Part shown: piece by piece, positions 1,190-34,497 of the stretch
Layout: the number at the start of each line of letters is the position of its first letter
Numbering within the stretch: position 1 is the stretch's first letter
Source: Rhynchopus sp. YZ270_cl-10
Taxonomy: Eukaryota
Direction: 5' to 3'
NCBI GenBank assembly: GCA_964035575.1
Contig: OZ037846.1
Location: 1,426,001 to 1,490,000, forward strand
DNA length: 64,000 nucleotides
Notes under the pieces: model-generated
Database searches by the model: none
What the model saw: the letters and a program-made list of their open reading frames with translations, nothing else
Told to the model about the DNA's origin: nothing
Made by a program: the position numbers and the translations under genes

Positions 1190-1471
1190 TATGTGAAACA
1201 ATTCTTTTTTTCTCTTTTTTTCTCTAAAACAAAAAGGCTTGTTCCCACCCACCCCTGTGTATTTTCCGGTTGTACAATTGGCTCTTTATCCCCACCTACG
1301 TCGATTTCAATACTATACCTTGCTTCACCTTCGGTGACCCTTACAGGGGGTGAAGGAAGGTTGTGGGAAAAGGATTGTAAATCCAAACACCACCCAGTTA
1401 GTCAAGAGATGGATGGACAATCAATGGCTGTCTTTGCACCACTCCCACAACAGAAACCACACAAAACACGA

Positions 1472-3406
1472 ATGGAACTCAACATCGAGGGATTTGATGG
1501 TAAGACGTACGTCGTCGATGTGGATGTGGATGACACAGCGAAGCAGCTGCGGCAGAAGGTGGCAACTGCAGCGGGGTTTGCTGAAGACGCCTTTGACATG
1601 GACTTCGGAGGGAACGGCGAAGGAGAGGACTTCAACATCACAGCGCTGAGTGCTGGCGGCACAGTCGTGTTGACGCAGACGAAGCAGCAAGAGTCCATTG
1701 CAGCTCTTCGTGCATTGGGTGAGACAGACATCACACCAGAGAGGCTTGCGAGTGTGGAAGACCCGAAGGTAGCGCAGTTGTTTCTGCAGGCAGACGTTGT
1801 ATCTGCGATTCCTCGCAAGTTCCTCGCAAGCACTAATTTACGCAGCCTTGATCTGAGTGCCCCGTTGGCTGTTACTGCGATTGATGACGACTTCTTATCC
1901 GAGTGTTTGTCATTGGAATCAATTAACTTGTCTGGGTTGCGCAACGTCACGACAATAGGCGAGTTCTTCCTGCACGGCTGCCCGTCATTGCGCACTTTTG
2001 AGCCATTCAACTTTTCAGGGTTGGGAGGTGTCACAAGCCTTGGGGACTACTTCGTTTCGCGTTGCAGGACGTTAACCTCTATCGACTTTGCAGGATTGAG
2101 CAGCGTCACAAGCGTTGGGGACGACTTCTTATCAGGTTGCCCGGCGTTAACCTCCATCAACTTTACAGGATTGGGAAGTGTCACAAGCCTTGGGGACCGC
2201 TTTTTAGCAGATTGCACGTCGTTAACCTCCATCGACTTTGCAGGACTGAGCAATGTCACAATCCTTGGGGAACGCTTCTTATTAGGTTGCACGTCGTTAA
2301 CCTCCATCGACTTTGCAGGATTGAGCAGCGTCACAAGCGTTGAGGACTGCTTCTTATTAGGTTGCATGTCGTTGACCTCCATCAACTTTACAGGATTGGG
2401 AAGTGTCACAAGCGTGGGGGACAACTTCTTAGCTTGTTGCCGAGAGTTAGCTTCCATCAACTTTGCAGGACTGAGCAATGTCACAACCGTTTGGGACGAC
2501 TTCTTATCAAATTGCACGGCGTTAACTTCCATTGACTTTGCCGGATTGAGCAGCATCACAAGCGTTGGGGACAGCTTTTTATCATATTGCACGTCGTTAA
2601 CCTCCGTCGACTTTGCTGGATTGAGCAGCCTCACAAGCCTTGGGTGCAAATTTTTATCAGCGTGCTCGGCGTTAACCTCCATCAACTTCGCTGGATTGGG
2701 AGGTGTCACAAGCCTTGGGCACGACTTCTTATCAGGTTGCACGTCGTTAACCTCCATCGACTTTGCTGGATTGGTCAATGTCACAAGCCTTGGTGGCTGC
2801 TTCTTATTACATTGCGAAGCGTTAACTTCCATCGACTTTACAGGATTGGGCAATGTTACAAGGGTTGGGCACAGCTTCGTATCACATTGCACGGCGTTAA
2901 CCTCCATCGATTTTGCAGGATTGGGAGGTGTCACAAGCCTTGGGCAACACTTCTTAGCAGATTGCGCGGCGTTAACCTCCATCGACTTTGCAGGATTGAG
3001 CAATGTCACAATCCTTGAGAAGTACTTCTTAGCAGATTGTGCGTCGTTAACCTCCATCGACTTTGCAGGGTTGGGAGGTGTCACAAGCGTTGGGGACCAC
3101 TTCTTATCAGGTTGCAGGGCGTTAACTTCCATCAACTTTGCAGGATTCAGAAGCGTCACAAGCCTTGGGAACTACTTTTTATCATATTGCAGGGCGTTAA
3201 CCACCATCGACTTTGCAGGATTGGGAGGTGTCAGAAGCCTTGGACACTACTTCTTATATGACTGCACGGCGTTAACCTCCATCGACTTTGCAGGATTGAG
3301 TGGCGTGAGACAAATTAGTCACGGCTTTATTCAAGGTTGCACTTCTTTAGAAACATACGACGAGTACATGGAGTGGTATTCGTCAAAAAGGAATCGGGAT
3401 GCATGA
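1472..3406 (+). CDS. Ubiquitin-like domain + BspA/TpLRR-type leucine-rich repeat protein, paralog 1 (644 aa, 17 LTSIDF-type 25-aa repeats)
   Basis: N-terminal Ubl pattern MELNIEGFDGKTYVVDVDVDDTAKQLRQKVA without a C-terminal GG, followed by 75-bp repeats LTSIDFAGLxxVTSxGxxFLxxCxA. ATG 1472 is conserved in all three paralogs; ATG 1409 is a possible alternative. Confidence 0.88.
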   Translation: MELNIEGFDGKTYVVDVDVDDTAKQLRQKVATAAGFAEDAFDMDFGGNGEGEDFNITALSAGGTVVLTQTKQQESIAALRALGETDITPERLASVEDPKVAQLFLQADVVSAIPRKFLASTNLRSLDLSAPLAVTAIDDDFLSECLSLESINLSGLRNVTTIGEFFLHGCPSLRTFEPFNFSGLGGVTSLGDYFVSRCRTLTSIDFAGLSSVTSVGDDFLSGCPALTSINFTGLGSVTSLGDRFLADCTSLTSIDFAGLSNVTILGERFLLGCTSLTSIDFAGLSSVTSVEDCFLLGCMSLTSINFTGLGSVTSVGDNFLACCRELASINFAGLSNVTTVWDDFLSNCTALTSIDFAGLSSITSVGDSFLSYCTSLTSVDFAGLSSLTSLGCKFLSACSALTSINFAGLGGVTSLGHDFLSGCTSLTSIDFAGLVNVTSLGGCFLLHCEALTSIDFTGLGNVTRVGHSFVSHCTALTSIDFAGLGGVTSLGQHFLADCAALTSIDFAGLSNVTILEKYFLADCASLTSIDFAGLGGVTSVGDHFLSGCRALTSINFAGFRSVTSLGNYFLSYCRALTTIDFAGLGGVRSLGHYFLYDCTALTSIDFAGLSGVRQISHGFIQGCTSLETYDEYMEWYSSKRNRDA

Positions 3407-8059: not shown

Positions 8060-9931
8060 ATGAATCGGGACAGACATGCACCCAATGGTGCCCACATGGA
8101 TGAGCGTGAGATGCGCGAGTTGCAGTACCTTCGTGAGATGAGGGAGTTGCACTACCTTCGTGAGAAGCGTGAGTTGCAGTACCTTCGTGAGAAGCTTGGC
8201 ATGGATGACAGAGAACGCGACTACGCAGAGTCCCGCCGTGACCAGAGAGGACCCGGCCGGGGTGACGACAGGTTCTCCGACAGGTACGACCGACGTGGAG
8301 GACGTGACGACCGCGGCATGCGTGAGGACCGCTTCGGACGCGGCCCACGTGACGACAGAGCGGACCCTCGTGATCGCGTTGACCGTTACGACCGCTCTGG
8401 CCCTTCTCACTTCAGAGACATCCGTGATCAACCAAGCGGCTTCTCGAGGCGCGACCCTGTGTTGCCCGATTACAGAGAACGTAACCGCCGCCCGTTGAGC
8501 CAGGACCGTTTCATTAGCCCACGCGATAGTGCGTGTAGTGGTGATCCGCAGCCCGTGAGCAACGTCCGTGACTATGACGACGGACCTGACGTACCACTCG
8601 ACGGACCACATGATGCACCACAACATACACGTCCAGAATCCGGACGCGGCGACATTCGTGACAGGCTAAAAGGGTCCCGCGACCCTCGCGACATTGCCCG
8701 TGATGCTGCCGCACGCGATGCTATGCGTCACGTCAACCCACGTGACTCCGACACTATCCCAGGTGACGGATTCCGCGAAGTGCGCCCTGCAAAGGAGAAC
8801 GGCAGTAAGGAATACAGGCCACAGCGCACAGACAAGACGATGAAGCGGCCTGACGGCACCACCATCCCGACCGTGGTGCCTCCACTCAGCAGAGACGACT
8901 ACAAGCAGGAGCAGAAGACTGAGAGCGAGGTAGGACGCTTCTTCGAAGAAAACAAGGCATGTAAGTACGATCTGCCGAAGCAGCCGGGCTCCGAGGAGGG
9001 CGATGACGCTCTTGGGGCGCCACATGGGAAAGGGGAGCACAATGGACGACATCTTCGGGTCGGCCCCCCTCCAGAGCAAAAAGGGCAAGTCGAAGGACGG
9101 CAGAAAGACGGGAAAGGGGACGGAGGTGACGGAGCAGTGGAAGAAGGAGTCGAAGGAGATTGTGAAGGAGATCAACAATCTCATCGACTTCGACTAATTC
9201 TAGACCCAACCCCTCCACTCCCCCACCTCATCACCCCCACTAGACTAGATACGTGCTTAGAATCGCACACAGAACCGGGGATAGGTAGGAGCGCCTACCC
9301 TAAAAACAACGACGAACCCGTGAACCCATTGAAGGCCATCACTGACCACATGCAGTGGTTGGACGCAACAGCCCGCAGTATCCACTCTACAAGGATAGCA
9401 GTAGCGCTGGACGGGGACTGCCTATTCACTGCCATAGCTGAGCAGAGTGAGGGGTGGACAACGAACTCACTGCGACAACGGGTGGTGGACGTACTGGACG
9501 TACTGCAAAACGACGACAGTGACCACTATACTGACATCTACTCTCCTGCCGCAAACGAAGCTCCCACCTACGCGCAACACCTAGCCAAAATGAGAATGCA
9601 AGGAACGCACGGTGGAGAGCGTGAGCTACAGACTGCGGCAAGCATACTCGACAGGGCCATCTGGGTACTGGATGCCAGAGCGAAACGGTTTAGCCACGTC
9701 GGCGGACCACCTACATCGAACCCAGTGGTGCTCACGTACAGGCCCGAGCACTTCGACCGCCTCGAAGCAACCGAGGGGCTGCTGGCGCTGATTGCAACGA
9801 CGCAAGCGGAAGGCAACCACTGTGTCACGCTCGCTGTGTCTCACACACGGAAACGCACCAAGACTGAGAGAAAGCGACGCCGCGCTGCCTGGGCCAACAG
9901 TTCCAAACCTGTCCTGCCCGAACCTTTTTGA
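8060..9931 (+). CDS. Chimeric ORF: deleted duplicate of the RD-rich KH/NTase gene fused in frame to an OTU cysteine-protease domain (possibly a pseudogene)
   Basis: 8060-9027 duplicates 14840-16422 with an in-frame 645-bp deletion. 9350-9800 encodes OTU motifs: DGDCLFTAIA (Cys codon 9419-9421), LRQRVV, THGGERELQTAASILDRAIWV, and VLTYRPEHFD (His codon 9749-9751). Confidence 0.6.
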   Translation: MNRDRHAPNGAHMDEREMRELQYLREMRELHYLREKRELQYLREKLGMDDRERDYAESRRDQRGPGRGDDRFSDRYDRRGGRDDRGMREDRFGRGPRDDRADPRDRVDRYDRSGPSHFRDIRDQPSGFSRRDPVLPDYRERNRRPLSQDRFISPRDSACSGDPQPVSNVRDYDDGPDVPLDGPHDAPQHTRPESGRGDIRDRLKGSRDPRDIARDAAARDAMRHVNPRDSDTIPGDGFREVRPAKENGSKEYRPQRTDKTMKRPDGTTIPTVVPPLSRDDYKQEQKTESEVGRFFEENKACKYDLPKQPGSEEGDDALGAPHGKGEHNGRHLRVGPPPEQKGQVEGRQKDGKGDGGDGAVEEGVEGDCEGDQQSHRLRLILDPTPPLPHLITPTRLDTCLESHTEPGIGRSAYPKNNDEPVNPLKAITDHMQWLDATARSIHSTRIAVALDGDCLFTAIAEQSEGWTTNSLRQRVVDVLDVLQNDDSDHYTDIYSPAANEAPTYAQHLAKMRMQGTHGGERELQTAASILDRAIWVLDARAKRFSHVGGPPTSNPVVLTYRPEHFDRLEATEGLLALIATTQAEGNHCVTLAVSHTRKRTKTERKRRRAAWANSSKPVLPEPF

Positions 9932-11187
9932 TTTTTTGGGTGTTTTGAGCGTGTATTATTTCCCCCCCTCTAACCTTTTGAAATCTATTACGCGTGTTAA
10001 CGGAAGAAAAAACACGAACTGCGTCTACACCTTCTGTACAAAAAGGCTTTCGGCCAACCGACATTTTGTTCAGAGCTTTTACCAAGTTGGTGAGACAATT
10101 TAAAAATAAAAAACAAAAAACAAAATAGTGGAGTTCATCCTCGGTGTCTACACTACAAAAAACCAGGGGACATTAGTATGCCGATGTGCCGGTGTGGGAT
10201 TTTGAGAAGGGAAAAAAGAAAAAGGCGGATTTTTGATTTTTTCTGAATTTTATCTCCTCATACAAGGCTACAACCACATCTGTAGCGGTTTCGTATGTGC
10301 ATGTGACCCCACCATAAAGACCAATCGGTCCGATAAATCAAAATACATAGATGTTCGCAACTCATAAAAAAGTAGCGTACCTTGCGCCTGCAGCGCTGCT
10401 AAACATTACGAGCGGTAGCCCACAGCTCTACCCTACCCATGCCATAGTTTGGCTATAAAAGCGTGCAATTTTTTGTCACAATTTTTGAAATGTTGCGCAC
10501 CGTGGCTTCGCCAGAAAAGTACTGGTGTCATATATGGTCAGACAAGGGTGCAGAGGGGAAAGTGTTGTGGATGTCTCTGTCAAAAATGTGTGGGGGAAAA
10601 AAAATTGCCTCAGTGCTCCAACGACGATGCGTGAGACCCTGTGGACAAAAACGAGCTGGAACACGCCGAGCCTGCCGAGCCTACGTCCAACAACGCTATC
10701 GATCAGATGGTGCTGGATGAAGAGGACAGCCCCCCCCCTTCTTGAACGTTTCAGATGCAGGCATCCCAGTGGGTCTGGCAGCGTACGAAGAGCGTTAACA
10801 TACCTGCAGAAGAGCAGAGTGCTGCGTGTGTTGTATAGGCGGAGTTCCACAGCACACACCGTTTTTTTCTTTCGATAGCAATTACTTGTTTTTCTTCTTT
10901 TTTTCTCTTTCTTTCTACAACAAAAAGGCTTGTGTAGTAACGGAAACAAGCAACACCCACCCACCCCTGTGTATTTTCCGGTTGTACAATTGGCTCTTTA
11001 TCCCCACCTACGTCGATTTCAATACTATACCTTACTTCACCTTCGGTGACCCTTACAGGGGGTGAAGGAAGGTTGTGGGAAAAGGATTGTAAATCCAAAA
11101 CACCACCCAGTTAGTCAAGAGATGGATGGACAATCAATGGCTGTGTCTTTGCACCACTCCCACAAACAGAAAACACACAAAACACGA

Positions 11188-12372
11188 ATGGAACTCAACA
11201 TCGAGGGATTTGGTGGTAAGACGTACGTCGTCGATGTGGATGTGGATGACACAGCGAAGCAGCTGCGGCAGAAGGTGGCAACTACAGCGGGGTTTGCTGA
11301 AGACGCCTTTGGCATGGACTTCGGAGGGAACGGCGAAGGAGAGGACTTCAACATCACAGCGCTGAGTGCTGGCGACACAGTCGTATTGACGCAGACGAAG
11401 CAGCAAGAGTCCATTGCAGCTCTTCGTGCATTGGGTGAGACAGACATCACACCAAAGAGACTTGCGAGTGTGGAAGACCCGAAGGTAGCGCAGTTGTTTC
11501 TGCAGGCAGAAGTTGTATCTGCGATTCCTCGCAAGTTCCTCGCAAGCACTAATTTACGCAGCCTTGATCTGAGTGCCCCGTTGGCTGTTACTGCGATTGA
11601 TGACTACTTCTTATCCGAGTGTACATCATTGGAATCAATTAACTTGTCTGGGTTGCGCAACGTCGCGACAATAGGTGCATACTTCCTGCAAGGCTGCACG
11701 TCATTGCGCACTTTTGAGCCATTCAACTTTGCAGGATTGAGCAGTGTCACAAGGGTTGGGGACAGCTTCTTATCATATTGCACGTCGTTAACTTCCATCG
11801 ACTTTGCAGGATTGAGCGGTGTCAGAAGCCTTGGGGACGGCTTCTTATCATGTTGCACGGCGTTAACCTCCATCAACTTTGCGGGATTGGGAGGTGTCAG
11901 AAGCCTTGGGAACTACTTCTTATCACGTTGCTGGGCGTTAATTTCGATCGATTTTGCAGGATTGAGCAGCGTCACAAGCGTTGGGGACTTCTTCTTATCA
12001 CGCTGCGGGGCGTTAATTTCAATCGACTTTGCAGGATTGAGCAGTGTCACAAGCGTTGGGGACTGCTTCTTATTTCGTTGCAGGGCGTTAATTTCAATCA
12101 ACTTTGCAGGATTGGGAAGCGCAACAAGGCTTGGGGGCAACTTCTTGTCAGATTGCACGGCGTTAACCTCCATCAACTTTGCAGGATTGGGAGGTGTCAC
12201 AAGCCTTGGGGACGGCTTCTTAAGACGTTGCACGGCGTTAACCTCCATCGACTTTGCAGGATTGAGTGGCGTGAGCCAAATTGGGACCAGGTTTACTGAA
12301 GGTTGCACTTCTTTAGAAAGACACAACGAGTACATGGAGTGGTGTTCGTCAAGAAGGAATCGGGATGCATGA
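11188..12372 (+). CDS. Ubl + BspA-type LRR protein, paralog 2 (394 aa, 7 repeats)
   Basis: N-terminal ~170 aa and C-cap are near-identical to paralog 1. The CDS is exactly 750 nt (10 x 75) shorter. Confidence 0.88.
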   Translation: MELNIEGFGGKTYVVDVDVDDTAKQLRQKVATTAGFAEDAFGMDFGGNGEGEDFNITALSAGDTVVLTQTKQQESIAALRALGETDITPKRLASVEDPKVAQLFLQAEVVSAIPRKFLASTNLRSLDLSAPLAVTAIDDYFLSECTSLESINLSGLRNVATIGAYFLQGCTSLRTFEPFNFAGLSSVTRVGDSFLSYCTSLTSIDFAGLSGVRSLGDGFLSCCTALTSINFAGLGGVRSLGNYFLSRCWALISIDFAGLSSVTSVGDFFLSRCGALISIDFAGLSSVTSVGDCFLFRCRALISINFAGLGSATRLGGNFLSDCTALTSINFAGLGGVTSLGDGFLRRCTALTSIDFAGLSGVSQIGTRFTEGCTSLERHNEYMEWCSSRRNRDA

Positions 12373-14839: not shown

Positions 14840-17293
14840 ATGAATCGGGACAGACATGCACCCAGTGGTGCCCGCATGAGTGAGCGTGAGATGCGCGAGT
14901 TGCAGTTCCTTCGTGAGATGCTCAAGGGTGGCAGAGAACGCGACTACGCCGAGCCCCGCCGTGACCAGAGAGGACCTGGCCGGGGTGACGACAGGTTCTC
15001 CGACAGGTACGACCGACGTGGAGGACGTGACGACCGCGGCATGCGTGAGGACCGATTCGGACGCGGCCCACGTGACGACAGAGCGGACCCTCGTGATCGC
15101 GTTGACCGTTACGACCGCTCTGGCCCTTCTCACTTCAGAGACATCCGTGATCAACCAAGCGGCTTCTCAAGGCGCGACCCTGTGTTGCCCGATTACAGAG
15201 AACGTAACCGCCGCCCGTTGAGCCAGGACCGTTTCATTAGCCCACGCGATAGTGCGCGCCGTGGTGATCCACGTGGTGATCCACGTGGCGAGCCGCAGCC
15301 CGTGAGCAACTTCCGTGACTATGACGACGGACCTGACGTACCACTCGACGGACCACCTGATGCACCACAACATACACGTCCAGAATCCGGACGCGGCGAC
15401 ATTCGTGACAGGCTAAAAGGGTCCCGCGACCCTCGCGACATTGCCCGTGATGCTGCCGCACGCGATGCTATGCGTCACGTCAACCCACGTGACTCCGACA
15501 CTATCCCAGGTGACGGATTCCGCGAAGTGCGCCCTGCAAAGGAGAACGGCAGTAAGGAATACAGGCCACAGCGCACAGACAAGACGATGAAGCGGCCTGA
15601 CGGCACCACCATCCCGACCGTGGTGCCTCCACTCAGCAGAGACGACTACAAGCAGGAGCAGAAGACTGAGAGCGAGGTAGGACGCTTCTTCGAAGAAAAC
15701 AGCAACAACTTCGTGCAGGTCTTCTACATCCTGCCGGCCAACGTGGAGAAGCTGGTGGGGAGAACCAACGCACAGATCCACCTACTGGAGCGGAAGTACA
15801 GTGTGGCGTTGAGTACGCATGCGACGGGGCGTGTCGTGGTGCGGGCACGTCGTTTGACGAACGTTGAGTCTTGCAGTGCCGAAGTGCGCCGCATCACGAC
15901 GCTGTGGGAAGATCACGACAGCACCGACAAATGGCTCGAGGTGACGGATCAGGTGACGCTCGACCTGGAGCGCAACAGCTGCCGCTATATGTACGACATC
16001 TCTCGCATCTCGGAGTGCAAGATCGACATCACCCGCCGCAAGACCGGCAACACCCTGCGCATGAGCGGCACCCCCGAAGCACGCGCCGCAGGCATTTCCG
16101 AGCTCCGAGAGTTCGTCGCGCAGTCTGCAACCAACGTCAATCAGACATTCATGTTCCCTCTGGACGCGCTGGACCGCTTCATCGGACAACGTGGTCGCAA
16201 CCTGGCCTCCTTCGAGAGAGAGACTGAGTGCGCTGTCAACACACGCAACGCAAAATCCGAGAGTGTTGGCGACCTGGGCCCTCTCGTTTTAACCGCACCG
16301 GTCGCGGTCATTGCGAAGGCTAAAGAGAAGATCTACGCACAGCTCAAGGCATGGAAGTACGATCTGCCGAAGCAGCCGGGCTCCGAGGAGGGTGATCTCG
16401 ACGTTCTTGGGGCGCCACATGGCCTGACTTTGACACGCTTCGAAAAGGATACGGACATGATCAGTGCAGAAGAGGCGCAACGTGCACTGCGCTACAGCTA
16501 CCTCCGTCACATCGTGCACGCTGAGAACTGGGAAGACCCCTCTGCCGAGACACTCAAAAAGTGCGATGAACTTGTCGCGCACATCGAAGAGCTGATGATC
16601 GCGGCAAGCTACAAACCGTTCAGAATCCGCATGGTGGGCGAGTGGATGCTTGGCGTCGCAGATAAGGAGACACCAGTGAACATGGTTGTTGTGCAGTCGA
16701 AGAAGCTCCGAGAGATGGCGCCCTCAATGCAGGCAGAAATCCTTGCGAAGCTGCAGCAGGTTCTGGCAAAGGACGGCTTCACCTCCGTTGACATCGTCGG
16801 TCTGTACAACAGCATCTTCCTCCGGAAGCGTGGCGGCGACGTGACGGCAGCCTCCCTCAACGCACAGTTCAACTTCGACATCTCCTGCAACGCTGCCCAC
16901 GAACAGCAGCTCTGCGCGCTTCTGCAGGCGTACGTCCAGCAGTCCCCCGCCGTCCGTGGAATGATGTGGGTGCTGAGCAGCTTCTTCAAGTCCCTCCCGC
17001 TTGCTGTGTGCTCTACTAAGGTCAAGACCGCACTCAGGCTTGAGACCATCGGAGTCATGGTCATCCGCTTCCTTCTCGACAGTTCTGAGCTCAAATGGAT
17101 CGACCCAACCTCTGGCCCCATCACCGCTGCACGCGAAAAGCGCCCCAGCGAATGTGAATGGGAACCCATGACCGACATTTCACAGTACAAAAGCCAGGTG
17201 CAGGCCTTCATGAAGTTCTATACGTTTGGATTCGACTTCGAAACACATCAGGTCAGCATTACCCAGGCACAGTCGAGCGAACGTGACGAGAAG
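14840..17293 (+). CDS. RD-rich low-complexity + three KH domains + degenerate TUTase/non-canonical poly(A) polymerase-like domain (large first exon; 3' end uncertain)
   Basis: KH-like units LPANVEKLVGRTNAQIHLLERKYSV, DISRISECKIDI...LRMSGTPEA and FIGQRGRNLASFERETECAV. NTase-like segments MVGEWMLGVADKETPVNMVVV, FDISCN and FMKFYTFGFDFETHQVSI. Probable donor AAG|GTATGT at 17293/17294; unspliced stop at 17335. Confidence 0.75.
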
Positions 17294-19013
17294 GTATGTC
17301 CCTGCCTTTCTGCAACACCCCGTGGGGGGCAATAACACAAACTGAGCGCCCAAAGGCTCAGGGTACCAACGTTGCTTTGCATGGCTCCGTTGAGGTGTCA
17401 GCATTGCTAAGAATTCAAAGTACTTAAGTTAGATCATCTTATAAACTTTTCTTTTGTCCTCCCCCACCTCCCCCGGTATGGATGCGTGTGTTGTGCTGTT
17501 TAGTTGTTGTGTTGTGTGTGGTTTGTACACTTCTTCAACTTCCATCGGCTTCTTCGTCCTCTTCATCCTCCTCTGCGATGATGGTGCGTACTCTGCTGAT
17601 GGCATGGCCCCTCGAGTCAATCCGAAGTGTGCAAGACTCAATTGAGTTGTTTCCTTTGGTTGGCCAGCAATGAGGAAATGCAGCGAGAATAGGGGTGGAG
17701 AGGGGGGCATCGTTCGACATAGCATCGTGAGGCTCACTGCATGTTCTGCTGACTGTGGCGGGGTGCTTTAGGGGCGTGCTTTGTACAGTGGAACAGGACG
17801 TTATTGGCCGATCCAAATCTCAAAAGCTGTTGTTTGGTGGCCACCACCCAAGAGTGATATTGGCAAGATCCCTCCCCCCAAGGGGCGGGTATCGGGTCAT
17901 CTTATGTGCTCTGCCGACGTGCTGTATCAAACCCGTTTGGAGCAAAGGACAACTGTCACTCCGAAGTTGAGAACAACCGTGGATGAACGCAAGCCCAGTG
18001 ACACAAAGGCTCATTGCGTAATAGCAGAAATGCAACGAGTGGATCGCTTCCTCTTTCCTTGCTTCTGTTTTTGATGTTGACGGAGGAATTCGTGTGGCTA
18101 ACACGCGTTGCGCTGTTACTGAGTTTTCACCTCGTGGCCATTTCGGACACGACATGGCAAAACACGCACTGAATTGCGACAACGAAGCAAAAAAGGCTGG
18201 CAGGCTACACTGCGTCACTTCGAGTTGCTATAGCCATAGCAGATGTGGTATGCCCATTCATATAGGGCAGACACAGAAAAACAGAGTGCCACTGCCGTCC
18301 GCAGCATTTCAGCATTTCAGCATTTCAGCACAGAACCACAGAACCTTCACCACGCCTTCCAAGCCTGCGACGCCACACGACAACGGAGACCCATATCCTG
18401 CTTGCGTCAGTCTTTTGAGCCGCGAGATTCACAAGAACAACAAAACTACACCCCGCTGTTGGTCCGAGCAGTGCGGATGTCGGGAGGCTGCTGGATTAAG
18501 GCTTCGAAGCCTTGGGAGTACACCCCTGGGTTGCACTGCGTCGGGTACGAATCATCATCACCATCACCATCACCATCACCACCCACATCTCCTCAAGCAC
18601 GGTGCGCTGATCTTACACAGCTGTAGCTGTATGCCATAACAGAAGGGGATGTACGCTTAGAGTAACAACTGTCGTGCGTTTGCCCTATCAAGCGTCTCTT
18701 CATCAACTGCGTTCGCGCAACGAGGCACCTGCTGCTGTGTGCAGAAGACGTCAATCAATATACAGTTACCAATACCGAACCGAACCATCGCAGCACTCTC
18801 AAGGGCACGGAACAGATGTTTTTTTTCCAACAAATTGTTCAAAAAAAAAAGATCATCCCGAAGAAAAAAAAATTACTCACCACAGGAGAAATCGCTTGTT
18901 GTTCGCAACCCGTTCGCGCCTAAGGACAACCTTGCCCCTCTCGGGGGTAAAGAGGTATGGGAAACGCTCTCTCTCTCTCTCTCACCCCCTTTTTCTCCAT
19001 TCAACATTTGCAG

Positions 19014-19376: not shown

Positions 19377-22021
19377 AAATAAAACTTCAAAAAATAAAAA
19401 TGCGGGGGGGAGGTGGCGCGCGACTCTGTTCACAGATCATGCATTGTATAGTGAAGTGGTAAAGTCAACGAATGAATCATGTGAGGTGTTTTTTTTTCAA
19501 CACCCAAAAATCTAAGAAAGAAAACAAAAAAAGGGATTTTTTACATAAAAACCCCGTCTTAATTAACCAATGCGCTGGGTTGGGTCTATCTGCGATGGGG
19601 GGGGAGGGGGAGGGGTTAAATACACGACGGGTGAAGTATGTTACATTACAAGTGAAGTTACTCGTAACGTTACAAGTAACAAAAGTTACTTGTAACGTAA
19701 CACCACATGTAACATTCGTTACTTCACCATCGTATAGCGATACCTATGTATCGTCGTCGCACAAAAAAACAAAAAGAGAAAGAAAGTGGAGATTTGCACA
19801 ACTGTGGCAACACAACCCGAGGCAACTGCACTACAACAATTTATCAAAAAAAGCAAAAAAAAAAAACTAGCTTCATATCAAAGCCATTCAAACCCATAGC
19901 CTTATCTGCACCTTTTAGGGGGGTATTTAGGTTATCGAGGCTGTAGGGCGCAATGGAGTAATGTGCCCCATATACCCCCACCCCCCTCCTCTCGAAGACC
20001 AACCCATTTCAATACTGGTGTTGGAGTGGGAAAGTCTGATAGTGTGTTGTGTGAAAGGGAAGAAAAAGCAAAATCGGTTCTGGTGTACTATAAGCTTCGG
20101 TGATGATGTCCATGTTATGTGTCGTGCAAAATTCGTGTTGTTGAAACAAGATAAAATAATAAGCTCGCGTTTCTTTTATCGAACAGATTTTTTTCTCCGC
20201 CCCGTACCCAAAAACGTAAACACCACTTTGAATCAGAAAAAAATATTTTCCTCTTCTTTTTTCTTCCACACGCGCTGGTTTTTGTCTTTCGCTAATTTTT
20301 ATCAAAAAAACCTTCCCTAGGCTCGCGTGCGAAACCTTTCTCCATGTATTGCACGGGAAACAATATGTGGTTCCGTGCATATCATAGAACCCAGCACCTT
20401 GTGTGTCTCCCAAAAACCAAAAGCGTTGTGTGTGAAGTTTTGAAGGAAGGAAAAATAAAACTTTATGTGCTGTTGGATGGCGGCGTATTGGGGGTGGAGA
20501 GGATTTTTTTATTTTATTTTATTTTATTTTTGCGACGAAGCGGTACCGCGAACGGTTAGGAAATAACATAAAAACCGTAAATGATCAGGCTCTTTCGGAT
20601 AGAAATGATTGGACATAGTGTGTCAAATGAAAAGCCACTTTTAGTGAAAATTTCGAGAAAAAAGGTTTTATTTTTGGTGCAGGCTTCCCCGTTATGCGTT
20701 GTTGATATTTTGACACTGCGCACAACTCATTTGTTACCAAGCTTATGTTTCGAGTCAGGCCAGCTCATTTTGCACGCGGGAGAGAGCTGCCACATCCAGG
20801 GGTGAGATGTGCTGCCTGTTAATGACTTCTCTCGGATCTCCATTTGCCCTTCGCGGTTAGCCCCAAAAAGGGAAGACACCCAGCCAGGTAGAGAATGCCC
20901 CCTCCACCCCCACCCCCACCCACAGCTGAGAATAAGCCGGGTCCCCGGTCCAGGTCCCGGTCCCAGTCCGGCTGAGAATAAGCCAGGTACCCGCCAGTCT
21001 TTTTCTCAGCTGCGCCTCCACACCCCCTCTACACTGTCCGCGTAGATCCCCCCCACTTCGTAAGGAGTCATCTGATGCCAGGCAAGTCGCTCCCCCAAAG
21101 CGATGCACGAGCCAATGATTTCCATTAGGGTCCCCACTATGCTTCCACGGTAACAACAGTGCAACGTCATAATTCAAAAAAATATATCATTAGCTTTGGC
21201 CGTTAAAAAAGGGGGGGTATAAAAGAGGTTGCGTGATTCGCGCTTTTTTGGTACGCTGTCTTGAGAGGGCTTTGCGTGTAAGTCATTTTTTTTTTTAAAA
21301 CTTTTTTATCATAACTTTTGGCTGTACCCAACCAACCCAAAAGAATACGTGTGTGCGTTTTACTACCTCCGTTTGTTCTGTCTTTATTGTCTTTATTATT
21401 TTTGTGGGGGGAGGAAACACAAAAAAGGAAAAGTCGGAGTGCGGTGTCCAGGGTACGCGCCATGTCGGGGAAATGAAAAAGGCGCAATTCTTCGGAGTGA
21501 CATGAGTCTCACCGTTCCCCTCATTCCCTCCCCCCCTTTTTTTTTGTGCTCCACCTCTCCCCCCGTACTTCAGGACGCGGGTTTTCGGGGTGTTTCGGGT
21601 CTTTTGGGGTTTAAAAAAAAAAATGGATGTATGTGAATCAACAAACGACTAATAAAGAATGGTGGGGTCTTTCATTTTCATATTCAATTTACCCCTCCCC
21701 TTCCCCTTCTTTTTTTGAAAACTTGGTTGTATTAGTGTAGACACCCGAGGATGAACTCCACTATATTTTTTTCTCTTCAGTGCCCGCCGATATTCCCCCG
21801 ATGGTTGGGTGTCCACTGTCATGTACCAAGGTACACTGTCACGAGAGGGGCTTTTGTATTTCAACTCTTTTGTTATAGGTAAAAACGCAGTTGACAGGGG
21901 AAAATGCTGCGGTCGCTCTAACTGTATTTTCCACCCTCATTTTGTGCTCCTCCTCACACATCACCATCCACCTTGCAGATATTCTTGATATTTACACATT
22001 TACACATAAGAACTCTTAACT

Positions 22022-25000
22022 ATGGACGACGCGCAGACGAATCAAACAACAGAGATGAAACACCCAGAGAACGAAGGCGACCTGCCCAGCTCGGTGCGAA
22101 TCTCTGTGCAGGCCATTGTGCAGGCCGTCAGCCCCACCGCTCGCGACAGGAAAGCGCAAACACTACAGGGTTTCACTGAATCGCTGGACGCTGCCCCCTG
22201 TGTGGTTGTAGCAAAGTCGACCTGCGGATTCTGCACGCGCGCGATCTCACAGCTCCAGAACACCGGTGTGCGTGTGGACGTCTTCTACATTGACAAGATT
22301 GCGGAAGGCGACAAGGTGCGTGAGGCTGCAAAGGAGGAGGCCTCAGGACACAGCACTGTCCCGCTCATCTTCATCAAAAGCGAGTTTGTGGGTGGTTGCA
22401 ACGATGTTATGGCGCTAGAGGGGTCTGGCGAACTGTACACGAAGCTTGGTGTGTCGGCACCGTCGAAGGTGGCTGCGTGGGTCACGGAGAAGGAGAGCGA
22501 GGTGCGCAAGAAGCCGATGAGGGCTGGGCTGTTCTACTTCCCGCACACAGTGAACGCCTACGTGATCCGCCTGGTCGCTCTGCAGATGGTGGTGCTGTGC
22601 GTGGTCTGCATCATCTTCAGGGACGAGGAGTGGGCTGCGTACGTTGCGCTCGGGATGGCATTGGACTTCTTCGTAAGACTCATCGGTGGTGCTGCCTTCT
22701 CCCCTGCTGGTGCGTTGGCGATGCTCCTGAGCGTCCCTTTGAAGGAGGACCTCAGAAACGGTCCCCCAAAGCAGTTTGCAACCATGATCGGGTTTGTCTT
22801 CAGCCTTGTGGGGGGAGTGCTTCTGCAGGTCGAGTCGTCCGGGATCGCTGGTGCTTTTGTTCTCGGGTGTCTGTCTGGGCCTGCTGCGCTGGAGGCTGTG
22901 TTTGACTTCTGCCTTGGGTGCTGGTTCTTTGGTTACATGGTGAAGCTGGGCATTGTTTCCGACAGTGTGTACCACGTGCACATTGACCAGAAGCCAGCTG
23001 TGCAGCGTACGTTGGACCTGATAGACGACTTTGAAACAGAGCTGAAGAAGGTCGTGCCACTGCAGTACAGAGAGCCGGGACAGCCGAAGACCGCTGCAGA
23101 TGTGAACCTGAAGAGATACAAGAGCGACGACCACGTGCGCAGAGGCTTCAATCCTGTGAAGAACGTGCACATCTCAGACATGATGATGCCCCTTGGTCTT
23201 GCGGGTCTTGCGCTTGTGTGGAAGAAAAACCACCGCTTTGCGTGCAAAGACCCTGAGGACAGCTCTGACGCATCGTACGTGGGGCCGAATGAGGTCTGGC
23301 ATGTTTTTCTGTTCTTGTCTCTTGCGCTGTTCGCGTTCATCGGGATGTTGCTCATTGCGAAGGTGGTGCGTCATCGGAAGAAGGTGCACGCAGAGCTGGT
23401 GCACCCGATTAAGTCGAACGCAGTTGCCGCCCTCCCGATGTGCATATGCGTGTACTCGATCCTGGTGCCGCATGAATCGAGGGACTTTGCTCGGGCGCTC
23501 TTCTGGATAGGTGCGGTGCCGCTGACGGTGCTGCTGATCTGGAAGTGTTCGTGGCTGATTGGGAACCGTGGTGACGCTGAGTTGATGACTCCGAGCCTGC
23601 TGCTTCCCATTGGCGGCTGTCTTGTGGCGTCCCTGAACGCGTCGCTCTGGGCTGGGTATGCTGAGCTGGCGTGGTTCCTGTTCTCGCTTCCGTGTCTGCT
23701 GTCTCTGCTGCTGTTTGGTGGCACGTTCCTGTCCTCGATTTCGTACCACTGGTCTGACGAGCGCATGCGTGCCTCGGTAGGGATGTGGAGCACCGTGCTG
23801 CACCTTATCTGCATCAGTTACGCGGCACTGCAGAAGCTCCCCATGTACGATCAGCTGACGAGCACCCGCAGTTTCTACTATTGGTATGGAGGCCCCCAGG
23901 GACTGCCAGACTCTGTGCAAAGTACAGTGGAGCTGAACTCCTTCAGCAAGGCGCTGTACTTCGCTGGCGTGACGCTTGTGCTTATTTTCCTGTGGCTTGC
24001 TGTGCCGATGGGCTTCATCTTCAGAGTGAAGTTCGACTTCTCATACTGGAGCGTTGCGTTCACAGCAGACATCTTTGCTGCGGCTGCCATGATCTATGCT
24101 GACGGTGCGTACAAGCCCCGCCTGCAGTCGGAGTCACTGAACCACTATGCCAGAGCAGTTGCCACAGGTGCGTTGATGTTTGCTACGTGGGTGAACGTGG
24201 TGCTCTTGCTGAACACGGTGTTCTGGCTCGTGAAGAAGAGATGGCTGCGCCCACAGTACAAATTTGGCCCCTTGTCGTTCAACAAACTGACCCACGAGGC
24301 GCTGCGTGAGTCTGGACACCACCTGCTGCGCTCTGCAGAAGGCATCGTTGCTGCAGGGTCAGGGGACGCTTTCACCGTGAAGGAGCTGTCGAAGGGGCTT
24401 ATCGCACACCTGAAGCTGCACCTGATAGTGCTGGACTGGCACAGCCACATGGAGGACACGATTCTGTTCAGGATGGTTGACTCGTTCCACCCGATGGTGT
24501 CGCGTGACGGATACGCCCAGCACGCCGCACTGCACAAGATGGAGGCCACTGCAAAGGAGCTCCTGACGAAGCTCGAAGACCCCTCTTCAGACCACGCACG
24601 CAACATCCTGGAGCTCCGTGACCTTCTGCAACGCATGGTGCCGTTCTCGGACAAGCACATGGACTGGGAGGAGGACAACCTGAACGGGCTTCTGCGGAAG
24701 GGCTTCAACATGGCGATCCAGCGGAAGCTTCTTGTCAACATCTGGGACTCGTACATGTCGAAGACGATGGAGGAGATCCGTGGGACGGTGACGCAGACGG
24801 ACACAGCGTGGTCTCAATACGACTTCACGAAGCTGAGTGCGGAGGCGAGCTACTACTCTGTGGAGAAGGACTTCAGGGAGCTGCTGAAGTTCCCACCGCA
24901 GTTCCCACTGGAGGAGATCCCGATGGAGAAGCAGCAGATCCTGCGTGTGGCGCTGCCCTTCATTGTGCACTGGCTGCCACTTCCGATCCAGAGAACACGC

Positions 25001-25156
25001 TTCATGCGCACACTTGCGTGGGGTGTCCCGGAGCATGCTCAGCAGGTGGGCGACATGGTGTACCGTGGGGTGCCCGACACGACGTGGGCTGTCCTGGCTG
25101 TCGACGTACCTGAGATGATCCCACGCGGCCTGCCTGGCTGGGTCAGGCGTGTGTAG
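22022..25156 (+). CDS. Glutaredoxin - DUF4395 - SLAC1/TehA (TDT) anion channel - hemerythrin fusion protein (1044 aa)
   Basis: Grx: KSTCGFC, TVPLIFI, VGGCND. DUF4395-like: VNAYVIRLVA, DFFVR, PPKQFATMIG, ALEAVFDFCLGC. SLAC1/TehA: PLGLAGLALVW, ELVHPIKSN, TPSLLLP, FDFSYWSVAFT. Hemerythrin: THEALR, HSHMEDTILF, QHAALH, HMDWEE. Confidence 0.85.
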   Translation: MDDAQTNQTTEMKHPENEGDLPSSVRISVQAIVQAVSPTARDRKAQTLQGFTESLDAAPCVVVAKSTCGFCTRAISQLQNTGVRVDVFYIDKIAEGDKVREAAKEEASGHSTVPLIFIKSEFVGGCNDVMALEGSGELYTKLGVSAPSKVAAWVTEKESEVRKKPMRAGLFYFPHTVNAYVIRLVALQMVVLCVVCIIFRDEEWAAYVALGMALDFFVRLIGGAAFSPAGALAMLLSVPLKEDLRNGPPKQFATMIGFVFSLVGGVLLQVESSGIAGAFVLGCLSGPAALEAVFDFCLGCWFFGYMVKLGIVSDSVYHVHIDQKPAVQRTLDLIDDFETELKKVVPLQYREPGQPKTAADVNLKRYKSDDHVRRGFNPVKNVHISDMMMPLGLAGLALVWKKNHRFACKDPEDSSDASYVGPNEVWHVFLFLSLALFAFIGMLLIAKVVRHRKKVHAELVHPIKSNAVAALPMCICVYSILVPHESRDFARALFWIGAVPLTVLLIWKCSWLIGNRGDAELMTPSLLLPIGGCLVASLNASLWAGYAELAWFLFSLPCLLSLLLFGGTFLSSISYHWSDERMRASVGMWSTVLHLICISYAALQKLPMYDQLTSTRSFYYWYGGPQGLPDSVQSTVELNSFSKALYFAGVTLVLIFLWLAVPMGFIFRVKFDFSYWSVAFTADIFAAAAMIYADGAYKPRLQSESLNHYARAVATGALMFATWVNVVLLLNTVFWLVKKRWLRPQYKFGPLSFNKLTHEALRESGHHLLRSAEGIVAAGSGDAFTVKELSKGLIAHLKLHLIVLDWHSHMEDTILFRMVDSFHPMVSRDGYAQHAALHKMEATAKELLTKLEDPSSDHARNILELRDLLQRMVPFSDKHMDWEEDNLNGLLRKGFNMAIQRKLLVNIWDSYMSKTMEEIRGTVTQTDTAWSQYDFTKLSAEASYYSVEKDFRELLKFPPQFPLEEIPMEKQQILRVALPFIVHWLPLPIQRTRFMRTLAWGVPEHAQQVGDMVYRGVPDTTWAVLAVDVPEMIPRGLPGWVRRV

Positions 25157-29884: not shown

Positions 29885-30052
29885 CAACCTTCCTTCACCC
29901 CTGCAGTCTTTGGATAATTTTTCGACCACTTAAATTGGAAAATATGAGCCCGCCTATTTGCAGCCAAAATTTTTCTCAAAATCCGGATTCGTACAATTGA
30001 CCCACCTACATCCATTTCAATACAATGCCTTATTAGGGGTGAAGGAAGGTTG
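29885..30052. mobile_element. TIR element CAACCTTCCTTCACCCC...GGGGTGAAGGAAGGTTG
   Basis: 17-bp inverted termini. Same family as the inverted copy at 61972-62326 and as the ends upstream of LRR paralogs 1 and 2. Confidence 0.75.
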
Positions 30053-30163
30053 TGGGAAAAGGATTGTAAATCCAAACACCACCCAGTTAGTCAAGAGATG
30101 GATGGACAATCAATGGCTGTGTTTTTGCACCACTCCCACAAACAGAAAACACACAAAACACGA

Positions 30164-31582
30164 ATGGAACTCAACATCGAGGGATTTGGTGGTAAGACGT
30201 ACGTCGTCGATGTGGATGTGGATGACACAGCGAAGCAGCTGCGGCAGAAGGTGGCAACTACAGCGGGGTTTGCTGAAGACGCCTTTGGCATGGACTTCGG
30301 AGGGAACGACGAAGGAGAGGACTTCAACATCACAGCGCTGAGTGCTGGCGGCACAGTCGTATTGACGCAGACGAAGCAGCAAGAGTCCATTGCAGCTCTT
30401 CGTGCATTGGGTGAGACAGACATCACACCAGAGAGGCTTGCGAGTGTGGAAGACCCGAAGGTAGCGCAGTTGTTTCTGCAGGCAGAAGTTGTATCTGCGA
30501 TTCCTCGCAAGTTCCTCGCAAGCACTAATTTACGCAGCCTTGATCTGAGTGCCCCGTTGGCTGTTACTGCGATTGATGACTACTTCTTATTCCAGTGTAC
30601 ATCATTGGAATCAATTAACTTGTCTGGGTTGCGCAACGTCACGACAATAGGTGCATACTTCCTGCAAGGCTGCCCGTCATTGCGCACTTTTGAGCCATTC
30701 AACGTTGCAGGATTGAGCAGTGTCACAAGGGTTGGGGACAGCTTCTTATCATATTGCACGGCGTTAACTTCCATCGACTTTGCAGGATTGAGCAGTGTCA
30801 GAAGCCTTGGGGACGGCTTCTTATCATGTTGCATGGCATTAACCTCCATCAACTTTGCAGGGTTGGGAGTCACAAGCCTTGGGGACTACTTCTTATCAGG
30901 TTGCATGGCATTAACTTCCATCAACTTTGCAGGATTGGGAGGTGTCACAAGCCTTGGGGACGGCTTCTTATCAGGTTGCACGGCATTAACCTCCATCGAC
31001 TTTGCACGATTGGGAGGTGTCACAAGTCTTGGGGACGACTTCTTAGCAAGTTGCACGGCGTTAACCTCCATCAAATTTACAGGATTGAGCAGTGTTACAA
31101 GCCTTGGGAACTGCTTCTTAGCACATTGCGAAGCGTTAACTTCCATCGACTTTGCAGGATTGGACAGTGTCACAAGCCTTGGGCACAGCTTCTTATTTGA
31201 ATGCACGGCGTTAACCTCCATCGACTTTGCAGGATTGGGAGGTGTCACAAGTCTTGGGGACGACTTCTTAGCAAGTTGCACGGCGTTAACCTCCATCAAC
31301 TTTACAGGATTGAGCAGTGTTACAAGCCTTGGGAACTGCTTCTTAGCACATTGCGAAGCGTTAACTTCCATCGACTTTGCAGGATTGGACAGTGTCACAA
31401 GCCTTAGACACTACTTCTTATATGACTGCACGGCGTTAACCTCCATCGACTTTGCAGGGTTGAGTGGCGTGAGACAAATTAGAGACGGCTTTATTCAAGG
31501 TTGCACTTCTTTAGAAAGACACGACGAGTACATGGAGTGGTATTCGTCAAGAAGGAATCAGGATGGATGGGCTGCACAGTAG
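30164..31582 (+). CDS. Ubl + BspA-type LRR protein, paralog 3 (472 aa, 10 repeats)
   Basis: Same constant ends as paralogs 1 and 2. One repeat is 24 aa, repeats 4-6 are duplicated as 7-9, and the stop is displaced by 4 codons. Confidence 0.88.
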   Translation: MELNIEGFGGKTYVVDVDVDDTAKQLRQKVATTAGFAEDAFGMDFGGNDEGEDFNITALSAGGTVVLTQTKQQESIAALRALGETDITPERLASVEDPKVAQLFLQAEVVSAIPRKFLASTNLRSLDLSAPLAVTAIDDYFLFQCTSLESINLSGLRNVTTIGAYFLQGCPSLRTFEPFNVAGLSSVTRVGDSFLSYCTALTSIDFAGLSSVRSLGDGFLSCCMALTSINFAGLGVTSLGDYFLSGCMALTSINFAGLGGVTSLGDGFLSGCTALTSIDFARLGGVTSLGDDFLASCTALTSIKFTGLSSVTSLGNCFLAHCEALTSIDFAGLDSVTSLGHSFLFECTALTSIDFAGLGGVTSLGDDFLASCTALTSINFTGLSSVTSLGNCFLAHCEALTSIDFAGLDSVTSLRHYFLYDCTALTSIDFAGLSGVRQIRDGFIQGCTSLERHDEYMEWYSSRRNQDGWAAQ

Positions 31583-32769: not shown

Positions 32770-34497
32770 ATGCGGTGCCTGAACAGCGCACTGACCATTG
32801 ATGGGTCGCTCAGTGCTGCCGAGACGAAGAAGCGCACCGTCCTGTTTGTGTTCTGTGTGGTTTCAGCTGTCGCGACTGTCTTGTCGAATGTGCTGCATCA
32901 GTACGACATGAAGGCACGCACCATTAACCTCCTCGGGTCTTGCGCGCTAGTCATTAGCGGGTGCGTTGGCATTGTTAAGGTGCTCTGCAAGCAGCAGCTG
33001 CGCACCGCGTTTGTGGTGGGTCTCCTGTACTCTGTCAGTATTAGTGTCTTCATGTGGGATTTGGACACACGTGCACTCGGGTTTGTTGCCTGGCCATTTC
33101 TAATCCTGATTGTGGACATGTTGCTTGTGATGGAAGTACCAGAACGGTACAGTGTATGGTTCGTGGGTGCGACAGTGGTGTGGCTGTTTGTGATGGGATG
33201 TGAGGAATCCTTCAGGTTTGGCTTGTTTGACCTTCCTGGGTTGTCACCGCACGAAGGTGAGCACAGCAGGAGAGAGGCCTTTATGGAAAAAGCTGACTGC
33301 GAATTCCTGCCCTGCAAAGTATCATTTCCACCAGTTGGCCTCACTTCAACCATTTCTGTCTTCCTGGTCGACTTTTTTATCACACGCAGGTTTGCGCACA
33401 ACGTGCTGAAGGAGCAGGAGTCAATGCGGCGCACGATCAGCGTTGTGCAGGAGATTGCGTCGCTTCTTGCGGGGTACGACGTGGAGCAGGTGGCGGAGAT
33501 GCTGGACGTGCATGGGGGTGACCTGCCTGAGGGGATGACTGCTGCCCTGTGGAGACTGGAGAAGAACCTGCGCATGTACAAAGCGTACCTCCCGAAGACG
33601 TGTCTGCCTTTTCAGGATGAGGTGGACAAGGTGCAAGCAGATAGTGAAGAGGACGACGGGACAGGGACAACAGACACATCCACAGAGTCCTCTCATTCGG
33701 TCGGACAGTCAAACATGCCAGTGTGCCTGCCACTGGGTCTGTCCTCGGTCAAGTCAACCCTGCTGACACTGAACGTGAAGGACACCCTGCATTTTCTGGA
33801 GAGGGACAGTGCGGCCTACTCCTCCTTCTTCACCACTCTTCTCCTGAAGACCCTGCAGGCAACAGAGACAAGACGTGGGATGGTGGACGTGTTCATCGGG
33901 GACAGGATCCACTGTTCGTTCAACGCCTCGAAGCAGTGTGCGACACATGCCACATCTGCACTGCACGCAGCAAGCCTGCTTCTGAAGGGTGTGAGCAGCT
34001 TTTGTGAGAAGGTGAATGCTGGTGTTGCGTCTGGGAAGGTGCTGCGTGGTGACATGGGTTGTGAGGTGATGCGTCGGTTCAGCATGGTGGGGGAGCTTGT
34101 GCGTGATGTGAACGGGCTGGAACGTGCGGGGCGTATGCTGGGGTGTGATGTGGTGTGCAACAGGATGTGCTTCGTCGATGCTGAGTGCGAACACCAGCTG
34201 CGTCTGCTTCCGTGCAAGGTGGAGGTTGCCTCTGGCTGTGAGGCACAGGTTGTGGCGGAAGTGATGGCTCCAGAGAGGAAGACAGCAGGAGCAGTTGACG
34301 AATGGATGTACATGATAGGTGAGAAGCACTGGGAGGAGTACAACACAGCGGTGCGTGGGTACCTGCGTGGTGAGCAGTCTGACCTTGACGTTACTATGGC
34401 ATGGACAGCTGCGGGAGGGGTTGGCACACCAGCACACGCAGTTCCTTCTGGGACGTGCAGTGTCGTGTGTTGCTCTCAGATCTGTTCCGTTAAGTAG
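32770..34497 (+). CDS. Multi-pass membrane protein with a degenerate class III nucleotidyl cyclase domain
   Basis: About 6 hydrophobic helices, NLRMYKAYLP linker, and cyclase-like GMVDVFIGDRIHCSFN and AGVASGKVLRGDMG...RFSMVGELV. Lacks the first metal Asp, the substrate Lys and the N-x3-R motif. Confidence 0.8.
   Translation: MRCLNSALTIDGSLSAAETKKRTVLFVFCVVSAVATVLSNVLHQYDMKARTINLLGSCALVISGCVGIVKVLCKQQLRTAFVVGLLYSVSISVFMWDLDTRALGFVAWPFLILIVDMLLVMEVPERYSVWFVGATVVWLFVMGCEESFRFGLFDLPGLSPHEGEHSRREAFMEKADCEFLPCKVSFPPVGLTSTISVFLVDFFITRRFAHNVLKEQESMRRTISVVQEIASLLAGYDVEQVAEMLDVHGGDLPEGMTAALWRLEKNLRMYKAYLPKTCLPFQDEVDKVQADSEEDDGTGTTDTSTESSHSVGQSNMPVCLPLGLSSVKSTLLTLNVKDTLHFLERDSAAYSSFFTTLLLKTLQATETRRGMVDVFIGDRIHCSFNASKQCATHATSALHAASLLLKGVSSFCEKVNAGVASGKVLRGDMGCEVMRRFSMVGELVRDVNGLERAGRMLGCDVVCNRMCFVDAECEHQLRLLPCKVEVASGCEAQVVAEVMAPERKTAGAVDEWMYMIGEKHWEEYNTAVRGYLRGEQSDLDVTMAWTAAGGVGTPAHAVPSGTCSVVCCSQICSVK

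Follow-up and report, generated by a model that had tools for sequence, protein, structure and literature searches.

A single open reading frame of the diplonemid Rhynchopus sp. YZ270_cl-10 seems to join a glutaredoxin (Grx), a DUF4395 membrane module, an anion channel of the SLAC1/TehA type and a hemerythrin-like (HHE) domain, which raises the question of whether such a protein exists and, if so, what it might do. The frame lies in a stretch of 64,000 nucleotides (contig OZ037846.1, positions 1,426,001 to 1,490,000, forward strand), referred to below as the window. An earlier note, made from the sequence alone, had read it as a redox- and O2/NO/iron-gated anion channel. We find that the fusion is real, conserved and undescribed in the literature searched, and that it is built from known parts. 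As to its function, we propose, with confidence evenly divided, that it is one membrane protein acting as a gated anion channel, regulated via a cytosolic thiol relay from Grx to a CxxC motif in DUF4395 and via a diiron site of the FBXL5/BRUTUS type.

The layout of the protein is given in Table 1. The single intronless frame of 1044 residues described in the earlier note is uninterrupted from ATG to stop, and its four domain calls hold. Pfam matches are obtained for Glutaredoxin (residues 61-123, E 1.9e-10), DUF4395 (PF14340; residues 177-307, E 1.2e-20, 74.5 bits against a cut-off of 24.5) and SLAC1 (PF03595; residues 382-727, E 2.5e-25, 89.7 bits against a cut-off of 27.9). The match to Hemerythrin (PF01814; residues 758-878, E 0.017) scores 16 and 17.5 bits, under the cut-off of 25.3, and this call comes from the fold and the relatives. 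The motifs lie where they had been placed: Cys68 of CGFC is encoded at 22223, Cys297 and Cys300 of FCLGC at 22910 and 22919, Phe680 of YWSVAFT at 24059, and the HHE ligands His758, His807xxxGlu811, His834 and His879xxxGlu883 at 24293-24670. Overlooked were the breadth of the family and a helical cap after the HHE bundle (residues 965-1044), which has conserved columns in the family alignment. The frame has a G+C content of ~0.57-0.58, against ~0.45 in the flanks, and tblastn finds one copy of the gene in the window.

Table 1. Features of the fusion gene (window positions) and bacterial loci with sulphur genes beside or fused to DUF4395.
Feature	Location	Strand	Remarks
Whole open reading frame	22022..25156	+	1044 residues, ATG to stop, intron not required; aligned end to end with transcript-derived relatives
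Glutaredoxin (Grx) domain	22160..22456	+	residues 47-145; motifs CGFC, TVP, GGC
DUF4395 membrane module	22523..22996	+	residues 168-325; 4 predicted membrane helices, GPPKQFA motif, C297xxC300
TDT/SLAC1-TehA channel domain	23153..24250	+	residues 378-743; ten helices, gate-position Phe680
Hemerythrin-like HHE four-helix bundle	24269..24706	+	residues 750-895; H758, H807, E811, H834, H879, E883
C-terminal helical cap	24914..25153	+	residues 965-1044; conserved W1000, P1003-E1004, P1030-E1031, P1034-R1035
cysK beside DUF4395	L007-L010, L023, L024, L026-L028, L032		one clade, counted once
O-acetylhomoserine/O-acetylserine (OAH/OAS) sulfhydrylase and cysE-like gene near DUF4395	L006		
cysK-cysE-thioredoxin	L022		DUF4395 directly after thioredoxin gene
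Thioredoxin-rhodanese-DUF1416	L021		DUF4395 directly after thioredoxin gene
SufS-like desulfurase near DUF4395	L003		heavy-metal cluster
Rhodanese fused to DUF4395	L015		
CysA-like ATPase and glutathione peroxidase near DUF4395	L016		

The fusion did not arise from misassembly. Transcript assemblies of Rhynchopus euleeides, Diplonema ambulator, Artemidia and Namystynia encode full-length proteins whose alignment with it spans the whole length, so in these relatives the domains are transcribed as one frame; separate transcripts, which the earlier note had named as evidence against a fusion, are not borne out there. Contigs of two public runs cover 30 of 30 bins of the frame at 80% likeness, and carry alternative letters and loose ends. 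Two of the loose ends, translated by eye, are stretches of the near relatives P0002 and P0003, suggesting paralogs from this organism or one very close to it. The window protein (P0001), P0002 and P0003 are identical in the linker from DUF4395 to the channel (58/58 residues) and in the cap (80/80), and differ most in the first channel helices and the loop (35 to 52 identical of about 74). The near-identity of linker, HHE domain and cap beside divergent channel loops suggests gene conversion or diversifying outer loops. In the loop between channel helices 1 and 2 (window 23220-23300, predicted to be extracellular), four proteins of the Rhynchopus group (P0003, P0004, P0005 and P0006) have a second CxxC, where the window protein retains a single cysteine.

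Nor is the fusion a diplonemid oddity; it is spread over distant protists. A word-indexed protein search yielded 12 proteins, including the query, among 7991 candidates scored, and the named ones are all diplonemids: R. euleeides (61% and 66%), R. humris, D. ambulator, D. papillatum, Artemidia and Namystynia. Searching 50% representatives gave 103 proteins at E 1e-30 or better and 150 among the matches listed. Among 20 looked up by name, further members come from Lacrimia, the kinetoplastid Papus, Porphyridium, Pirum, Tetrabaena, Ostreobium, a pedinophyte and Rigifila, and searching with the Tetrabaena protein as query brought in Gonium, Chlamydomonas schloesseri, C. incerta, C. sp. UWO 241, Edaphochlamys and the diatom Epithemia. 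The fusion is thus present in a kinetoplastid, green and red algae, a diatom and an ichthyosporean, and in Rigifila without Grx. The order Grx-DUF4395-TDT-HHE-cap is seen in 66 of 92 fetched proteins of at least 750 residues, with profiles built from the same set; 16 others have no Grx match (some are truncated), nine lack C-terminal parts and one is unrelated. Pfam scores all four families in 24 of 53 relatives scanned. Among 119 plasmid records with a match, none reaches 80% coverage of the protein.

A FastTree tree of 66 rows groups diplonemids with Papus (support 99), Chlamydomonadales with Ostreobium (97) and Epithemia with Porphyridium (98); it has no outgroup, gave long-branch warnings and carries Shimodaira-Hasegawa-like support only. 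The unrooted tree is compatible with a long vertical inheritance of the fusion. Database names follow one domain only: 'S-type anion channel SLAH3', 'tellurite resistance protein TehA-like permease/glutaredoxin' or, for both D. papillatum records, just 'Glutaredoxin-C1'.

Profile, fold and gate residue all place the channel domain in the TDT/SLAC1 fold family. It is not a TehA equivalog, as it scores below the NCBIfam cut-offs for the equivalog and the tdt subfamily (PRK10764, 45.2 against 342; TIGR00816, 39.3 against 237.25). The model of residues 368-745 can be superimposed onto SLAH1 with Z 34.9 and an r.m.s. deviation of 3.2 for 309 aligned residues, onto TehA with Z 33.5 and 2.7 for 305, and onto SLAH3 with Z 33.2, the range over SLAH1, TehA, SLAH3 and SLAC1 being Z 30-35. 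Against the family profile, SLAH3 scores 177 bits and TehA 145 bits, and the motifs of transmembrane helices TM1, TM3, TM5, TM7 and TM9 are in register. Phe680, at the gate position of TM9, is kept in 81 of 84 rows, including 12 of 12 diplonemid rows, and is aligned by profile with the TM9 phenylalanine of TehA. The TehA gate is Phe262 (PMC11050165).

The ten-helix fold and the TM9 gate phenylalanine are common to the window protein, SLAC1, SLAH1 and SLAH3 (PDB 7wnq, 9m7s, 9m7r) and Haemophilus TehA (3m71), and the family consensus also shares the odd-helix motifs. The window protein differs from the plant S-type channels and TehA in its low identity (15-20%), in having Grx, DUF4395, HHE and cap instead of phosphorylated tails, and in its drifted pore motifs. 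The fungal transporters Mae1 and Ssu1, likened here by domain, share the Pfam domain and a pore phenylalanine; unlike the window protein, they have no accessory domains in the description that the accessible text gives (PMC6765260). Two uncharacterised algal TDT groups were recognised by Dreyer et al. 2012 (PMC3509319), who list C. reinhardtii Cre13.g584200 as 'MAE2'. The word 'glutaredoxin' is absent from the main text of that paper.

DUF4395 has attracted passing mentions only, with no function described in the texts available. Cys297 and Cys300 are each kept in 55 of 57 aligned proteins, and Gly223, Gly247, Lys250, Gln251, Phe252 and Ala253 about equally. Folded alone from 55 sequences (predicted local distance difference test, pLDDT, 94.4; predicted template modelling score, pTM, 0.88), the module is a four-helix membrane bundle with two short helices, and in the model the CxxC opens the helix that follows the fourth membrane helix. 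The termini of SLAC1 and TehA are cytosolic. Helix count (4 + 10) and loop charges predict that Grx, CxxC, channel ends and HHE domain all lie on one side of the membrane, the cytosolic one. Foldseek gave no match for the DUF4395 model at E 0.001, the best hits being generic four-helix bundles (Z 8.1); no solved relative was turned up by this fold search, in which a likeness to VKOR, DsbB or YgaP was not seen but could have been missed. An internal duplication of DUF4395 was considered and rejected, as the profile halves match at 1% probability.

Complex prediction of DUF4395 with the channel, HHE domain and cap scored 0.52 (best of three controls, 0.00; contact agreement at least 27%; partner pLDDT at least 72), which is weak support. 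Of 78 solved complexes, 5 reached the mark at 0.60 or under, as did each of the 4 mismatches that passed among 180. The prediction gave no interface, and hence no indication of which part DUF4395 touches.

The Grx domain has the motifs CGFC, TVP and GGCN and a thioredoxin fold (Z 15.4 for the model against solved human Grx2). Its closest solved sequence is 2myg, a dithiol glutaredoxin 1 (E 2.1e-12), and it scores 58.1 bits with NCBIfam GRX_euk, below the cut-off of 87.25. Class I glutaredoxins (2myg, cyanobacterial GrxA) share the fold and the CxxC, TVP and GGC motifs; the window Grx differs in being tethered to a membrane protein, and in the family the second cysteine is lost in 8 of 42 rows. 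Of the 45 rows with a residue at the position of the first cysteine, Cys68, 42 keep it, and 34 of those 42 have the second. In two relatives, P0074 and P0085, Grx is replaced by an Rdx-family domain (CxxC, CxxS). Because Grx is both less constant and exchanged in this way, the family core is DUF4395-channel-HHE, with an exchangeable thiol donor. DUF4395 is found with a thioredoxin-fold partner in three ways: Grx, Rdx and a neighbouring bacterial thioredoxin. The thiol relay from Grx to CLGC suggested in the earlier note is strengthened by these three kinds of partner and by the predicted one-sided topology; the second Grx cysteine is not invariant.

The hemerythrin call is supported despite the low Pfam score, because 27 of the 53 relatives pass the Pfam cut-off and because the model of residues 746-913 resembles NMB1532 (Z 15.0, r.m.s. 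deviation 2.5, 154 aligned residues) and the FBXL5 hemerythrin domain (3v5x; Z 13.1, 2.7, 148 aligned). A fold match to PF0695 (Z 15.8) reaches residue 1003, and that to DcrH-Hr (Z 10.9) is lower than those to HHE-type proteins. With the HHE region as a single sequence, nothing under E 1 was found among solved structures; atlas matches for this part scored 0.87-0.88 and serve as leads only. Of the 54 rows covering the six ligands, 43 have the full set; the other 11 have lost ligands, and nine of these still keep the CxxC, a pattern that suits a modulator better than an essential catalytic step.

The ligand set of O2-binding hemerythrins is H-HxxxE-HxxxH-HxxxxD. In our family the last site reads HxxxEE, and Asp at +5 is never among the commonest letters; an extra histidine of the window protein, His838, makes an HxxxH, but in only 26 of 57 rows. 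The pattern H-HxxxE-H-HxxxE is the diiron motif of BRUTUS domains, which bind diiron; their centres are oxidised by O2 and H2O2 and reduced very slowly by 3 mM glutathione, and the stability of BTS requires iron binding (PMC12022348). O2-binding hemerythrins form a separate subgroup, and the FBXL5 site does not bind oxygen (PMC4919030). For these reasons we read the HHE domain as a probable sensor of iron occupancy and oxidants, not as an O2 carrier. The O2/NO/iron gating proposed in the earlier note is thus narrowed: oxidation by O2 or H2O2 fits the BRUTUS-type ligand set (PMC12022348), and reversible O2 binding or carriage is not supported. BRUTUS/HRZ share the motif (PMC12022348) and FBXL5 the fold with the window HHE domain; theirs are joined to ubiquitin ligases, whereas ours directly follows a channel and its iron site is predicted.

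Together these parts suggest how the protein might work as a gated anion channel. Grx would draw electrons from the low-molecular-weight thiol pool and set the dithiol/disulphide state of the DUF4395 CxxC. The HHE bundle, on a short conserved linker from the last channel helix, would hold a diiron centre that is oxidised by O2 or H2O2 and emptied by iron shortage. The states of CxxC and diiron centre would then shift the pore helices, taking the place of the phosphorylation by which kinases open SLAC1 in plants. Re-reducing, and so resetting, the diiron centre may be a further role of the CxxC; a fused thiol relay would gain a use here, because glutathione reduces centres of the BRUTUS type only very slowly. 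The domains, folds and conserved residues are established and the topology is predicted; electron flow, iron binding, coupling and conduction are the parts we infer.

Several points weigh against this proposal. The full-length AlphaFold2 model, built from 12 sequences, has a mean pLDDT of 67.8 and a pTM of 0.56, with linkers below pLDDT 50; the structure prediction for cysteine proximity that the earlier note had in mind therefore supports domain folds but not domain contacts or cysteine distances. The window copy departs from the family consensus of canonical pore motifs in TM1, TM3, TM5 and TM7 and after the gate (Met387 for Phe, Val468 for Phe, IGGC for PVGN, STVLH for VAAPA, Thr681 for Pro), and has acidic residues, Asp386 and Asp683, in its pore helices, so that selectivity or even conduction of the diplonemid copy may differ. 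The 16 long relatives without a Grx match count on the same side, as does the fact that bacterial DUF4395 neighbourhoods point to sulphur metabolism and not to general redox sensing. Gating, transport, iron and redox roles are all proposed from sequence and models.

The bacterial neighbourhoods lead to the main alternative, a sulphur-oxyanion module: the CxxC would take sulfane sulphur or a disulphide from thiosulfate or S-sulfo compounds, Grx would resolve it, the pore would move sulfite or thiosulfate, and the diiron domain would sense or remove sulfide, O2 or peroxide. We regard this as possible but tentative. Over 97% of the domain, the window DUF4395 shares 39.5% identity with a stand-alone protein from Tsukamurella, both having PPKxFA and CxGC, and it groups with the CxGC/CxAC type, not with the single-cysteine type. 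Bacterial DUF4395 proteins (PF14340) are stand-alone or rhodanese-fused and often lie in cysteine/sulphur clusters, whereas the window DUF4395 is joined to a channel. We sampled five plasmid records and Acidobacteriota genomes, of which 14 of 201 gave a family match and 12 of 401 a protein match. With the ten cysK loci taken as one event, and with L014, from an unpublished genome, and the borderline matches L018 and L019 excluded, this leaves 14 independent contexts, in seven of which DUF4395 is beside or fused to cysteine or sulphur genes (Table 1). The sulfite/oxyanion option in the earlier note gains from this, and also from the yeast sulfite pump Ssu1 having the same Pfam domain (PMC6765260). 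Set against it, no sulphur gene occurs among the frames tested at the other seven contexts (L001, L002, L011, L012, L013, L017 and L033), and the sample is small and taxonomically narrow, with one phylum besides plasmids. Moreover, no sulphur gene was recognised in the 16 other window frames scanned, and the best solved matches of the channel profile are SLAH3, TehA and SLAH1.

Extended to the whole family, this alternative would describe an ancient eukaryotic line of self-contained, redox-gated sulphur-oxyanion channels, combining a bacterial sulphur-relay DUF4395 and a SLAC1-type pore with their own Grx and a diiron O2/peroxide sensor, and inherited across euglenozoans, green and red algae, diatoms and relatives of animals; we hold this view with similarly little confidence.

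One Acidobacteriota group (the ten cysK loci of Table 1) has a conserved run of cysK, DUF4395 and a CAP-domain gene, followed by MlaE where seen. A second, mostly single-cysteine DUF4395 type occurs at L011-L013 and L015-L017, one member being fused to rhodanese. Two further candidates, L004 and L005, were dropped, as they turned out not to be DUF4395.

Much less probable is that the HHE domain is mainly an iron-dependent stability switch, as in FBXL5 and BRUTUS, setting the amount of channel in the membrane, or that the diplonemid pore is degenerate and the protein a redox sensor scaffold. In favour are the FBXL5 fold match (Z 13.1), the iron requirement for BTS stability (PMC12022348), the drifted pore motifs of diplonemids, and the first two channel helices and their loop, which are the least alike part among the paralogs (35/73, against 80/80 in the cap). 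Against stand the gate phenylalanine, kept in all 12 diplonemid rows, and the short conserved linker and cap, which fit direct mechanical coupling.

Glutaredoxin can drive arsenate reduction, and TehA is annotated for tellurite. A metalloid detoxifier, in which Grx and CxxC reduce or bind arsenate, selenite or tellurite and a TehA-type pore exports the product, is nevertheless just as improbable: TehA is named a tellurite-resistance transporter (PMC11050165) and DUF4395 sits in a heavy-metal cluster at L003, but a metal link is seen in only 1 of 14 bacterial contexts, Pfam finds no arsenate-reductase domain in the protein, and the HHE domain is left unexplained.

The known channels of the SLAC1 type are either plant channels gated by kinases or plain exporters of microbes. 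If our proposal of a gated channel is true, a version with its own thiol relay and diiron site would link redox, iron and oxygen state directly to ion flux, in a fusion conserved among protists that abound in the sea and in fresh water (diplonemids, diatoms, green algae). If it were a redox-gated sulphur-oxyanion channel, it would provide the first function for DUF4395 and a SLAC1-type channel gated without kinases. The fusion also offers a handle on DUF4395, a domain without a described function or a solved relative found. Orthologs in Chlamydomonas species and in D. papillatum make the fusion testable, and single substitutions address each module. The earlier note knew of no characterised protein with this architecture, and our searches, which did not reach subscription literature or most supplements, turned up no description of one either. 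An algal selenoproteome paper mentions neither SLAC1 nor DUF4395 in the part available, and the main text of the D. papillatum genome paper is without 'glutaredoxin', 'anion channel' and 'tellurite'.

The other genes of the window give no clue to a pathway: the 16 other frames scanned with Pfam match leucine-rich repeat, KH, OTU, EF-hand, PDZ, cyclase, fucosyltransferase, PH or WD40 domains, or nothing. Just upstream of the fusion gene, at window 21500-21900, lies a very high-copy dispersed repeat, where summed contig depth rises to ~690,000, against ~100 in unique parts, with many loose ends and no tandem array. A 1308-residue frame at 56504-60430 has a strongly skewed repeat region at ~57000-58700 and no Pfam match. 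Two genes, at 8060-9931 and 14840-17335, have a similar N-terminus rich in Arg, Asp and Gly, followed in one by an OTU protease domain and in the other by a KH domain and a weak poly(A)-polymerase-associated match. Membrane proteins with similar N-termini are encoded at 32770-34497 and 44606-46663, the first without a Pfam match and the second with an adenylate/guanylate cyclase domain. Finally, a gene with ubiquitin-like and BspA-type leucine-rich repeat domains is present in three copies that differ in repeat number (1409-3406, 11122-12372 and 30050-31582).

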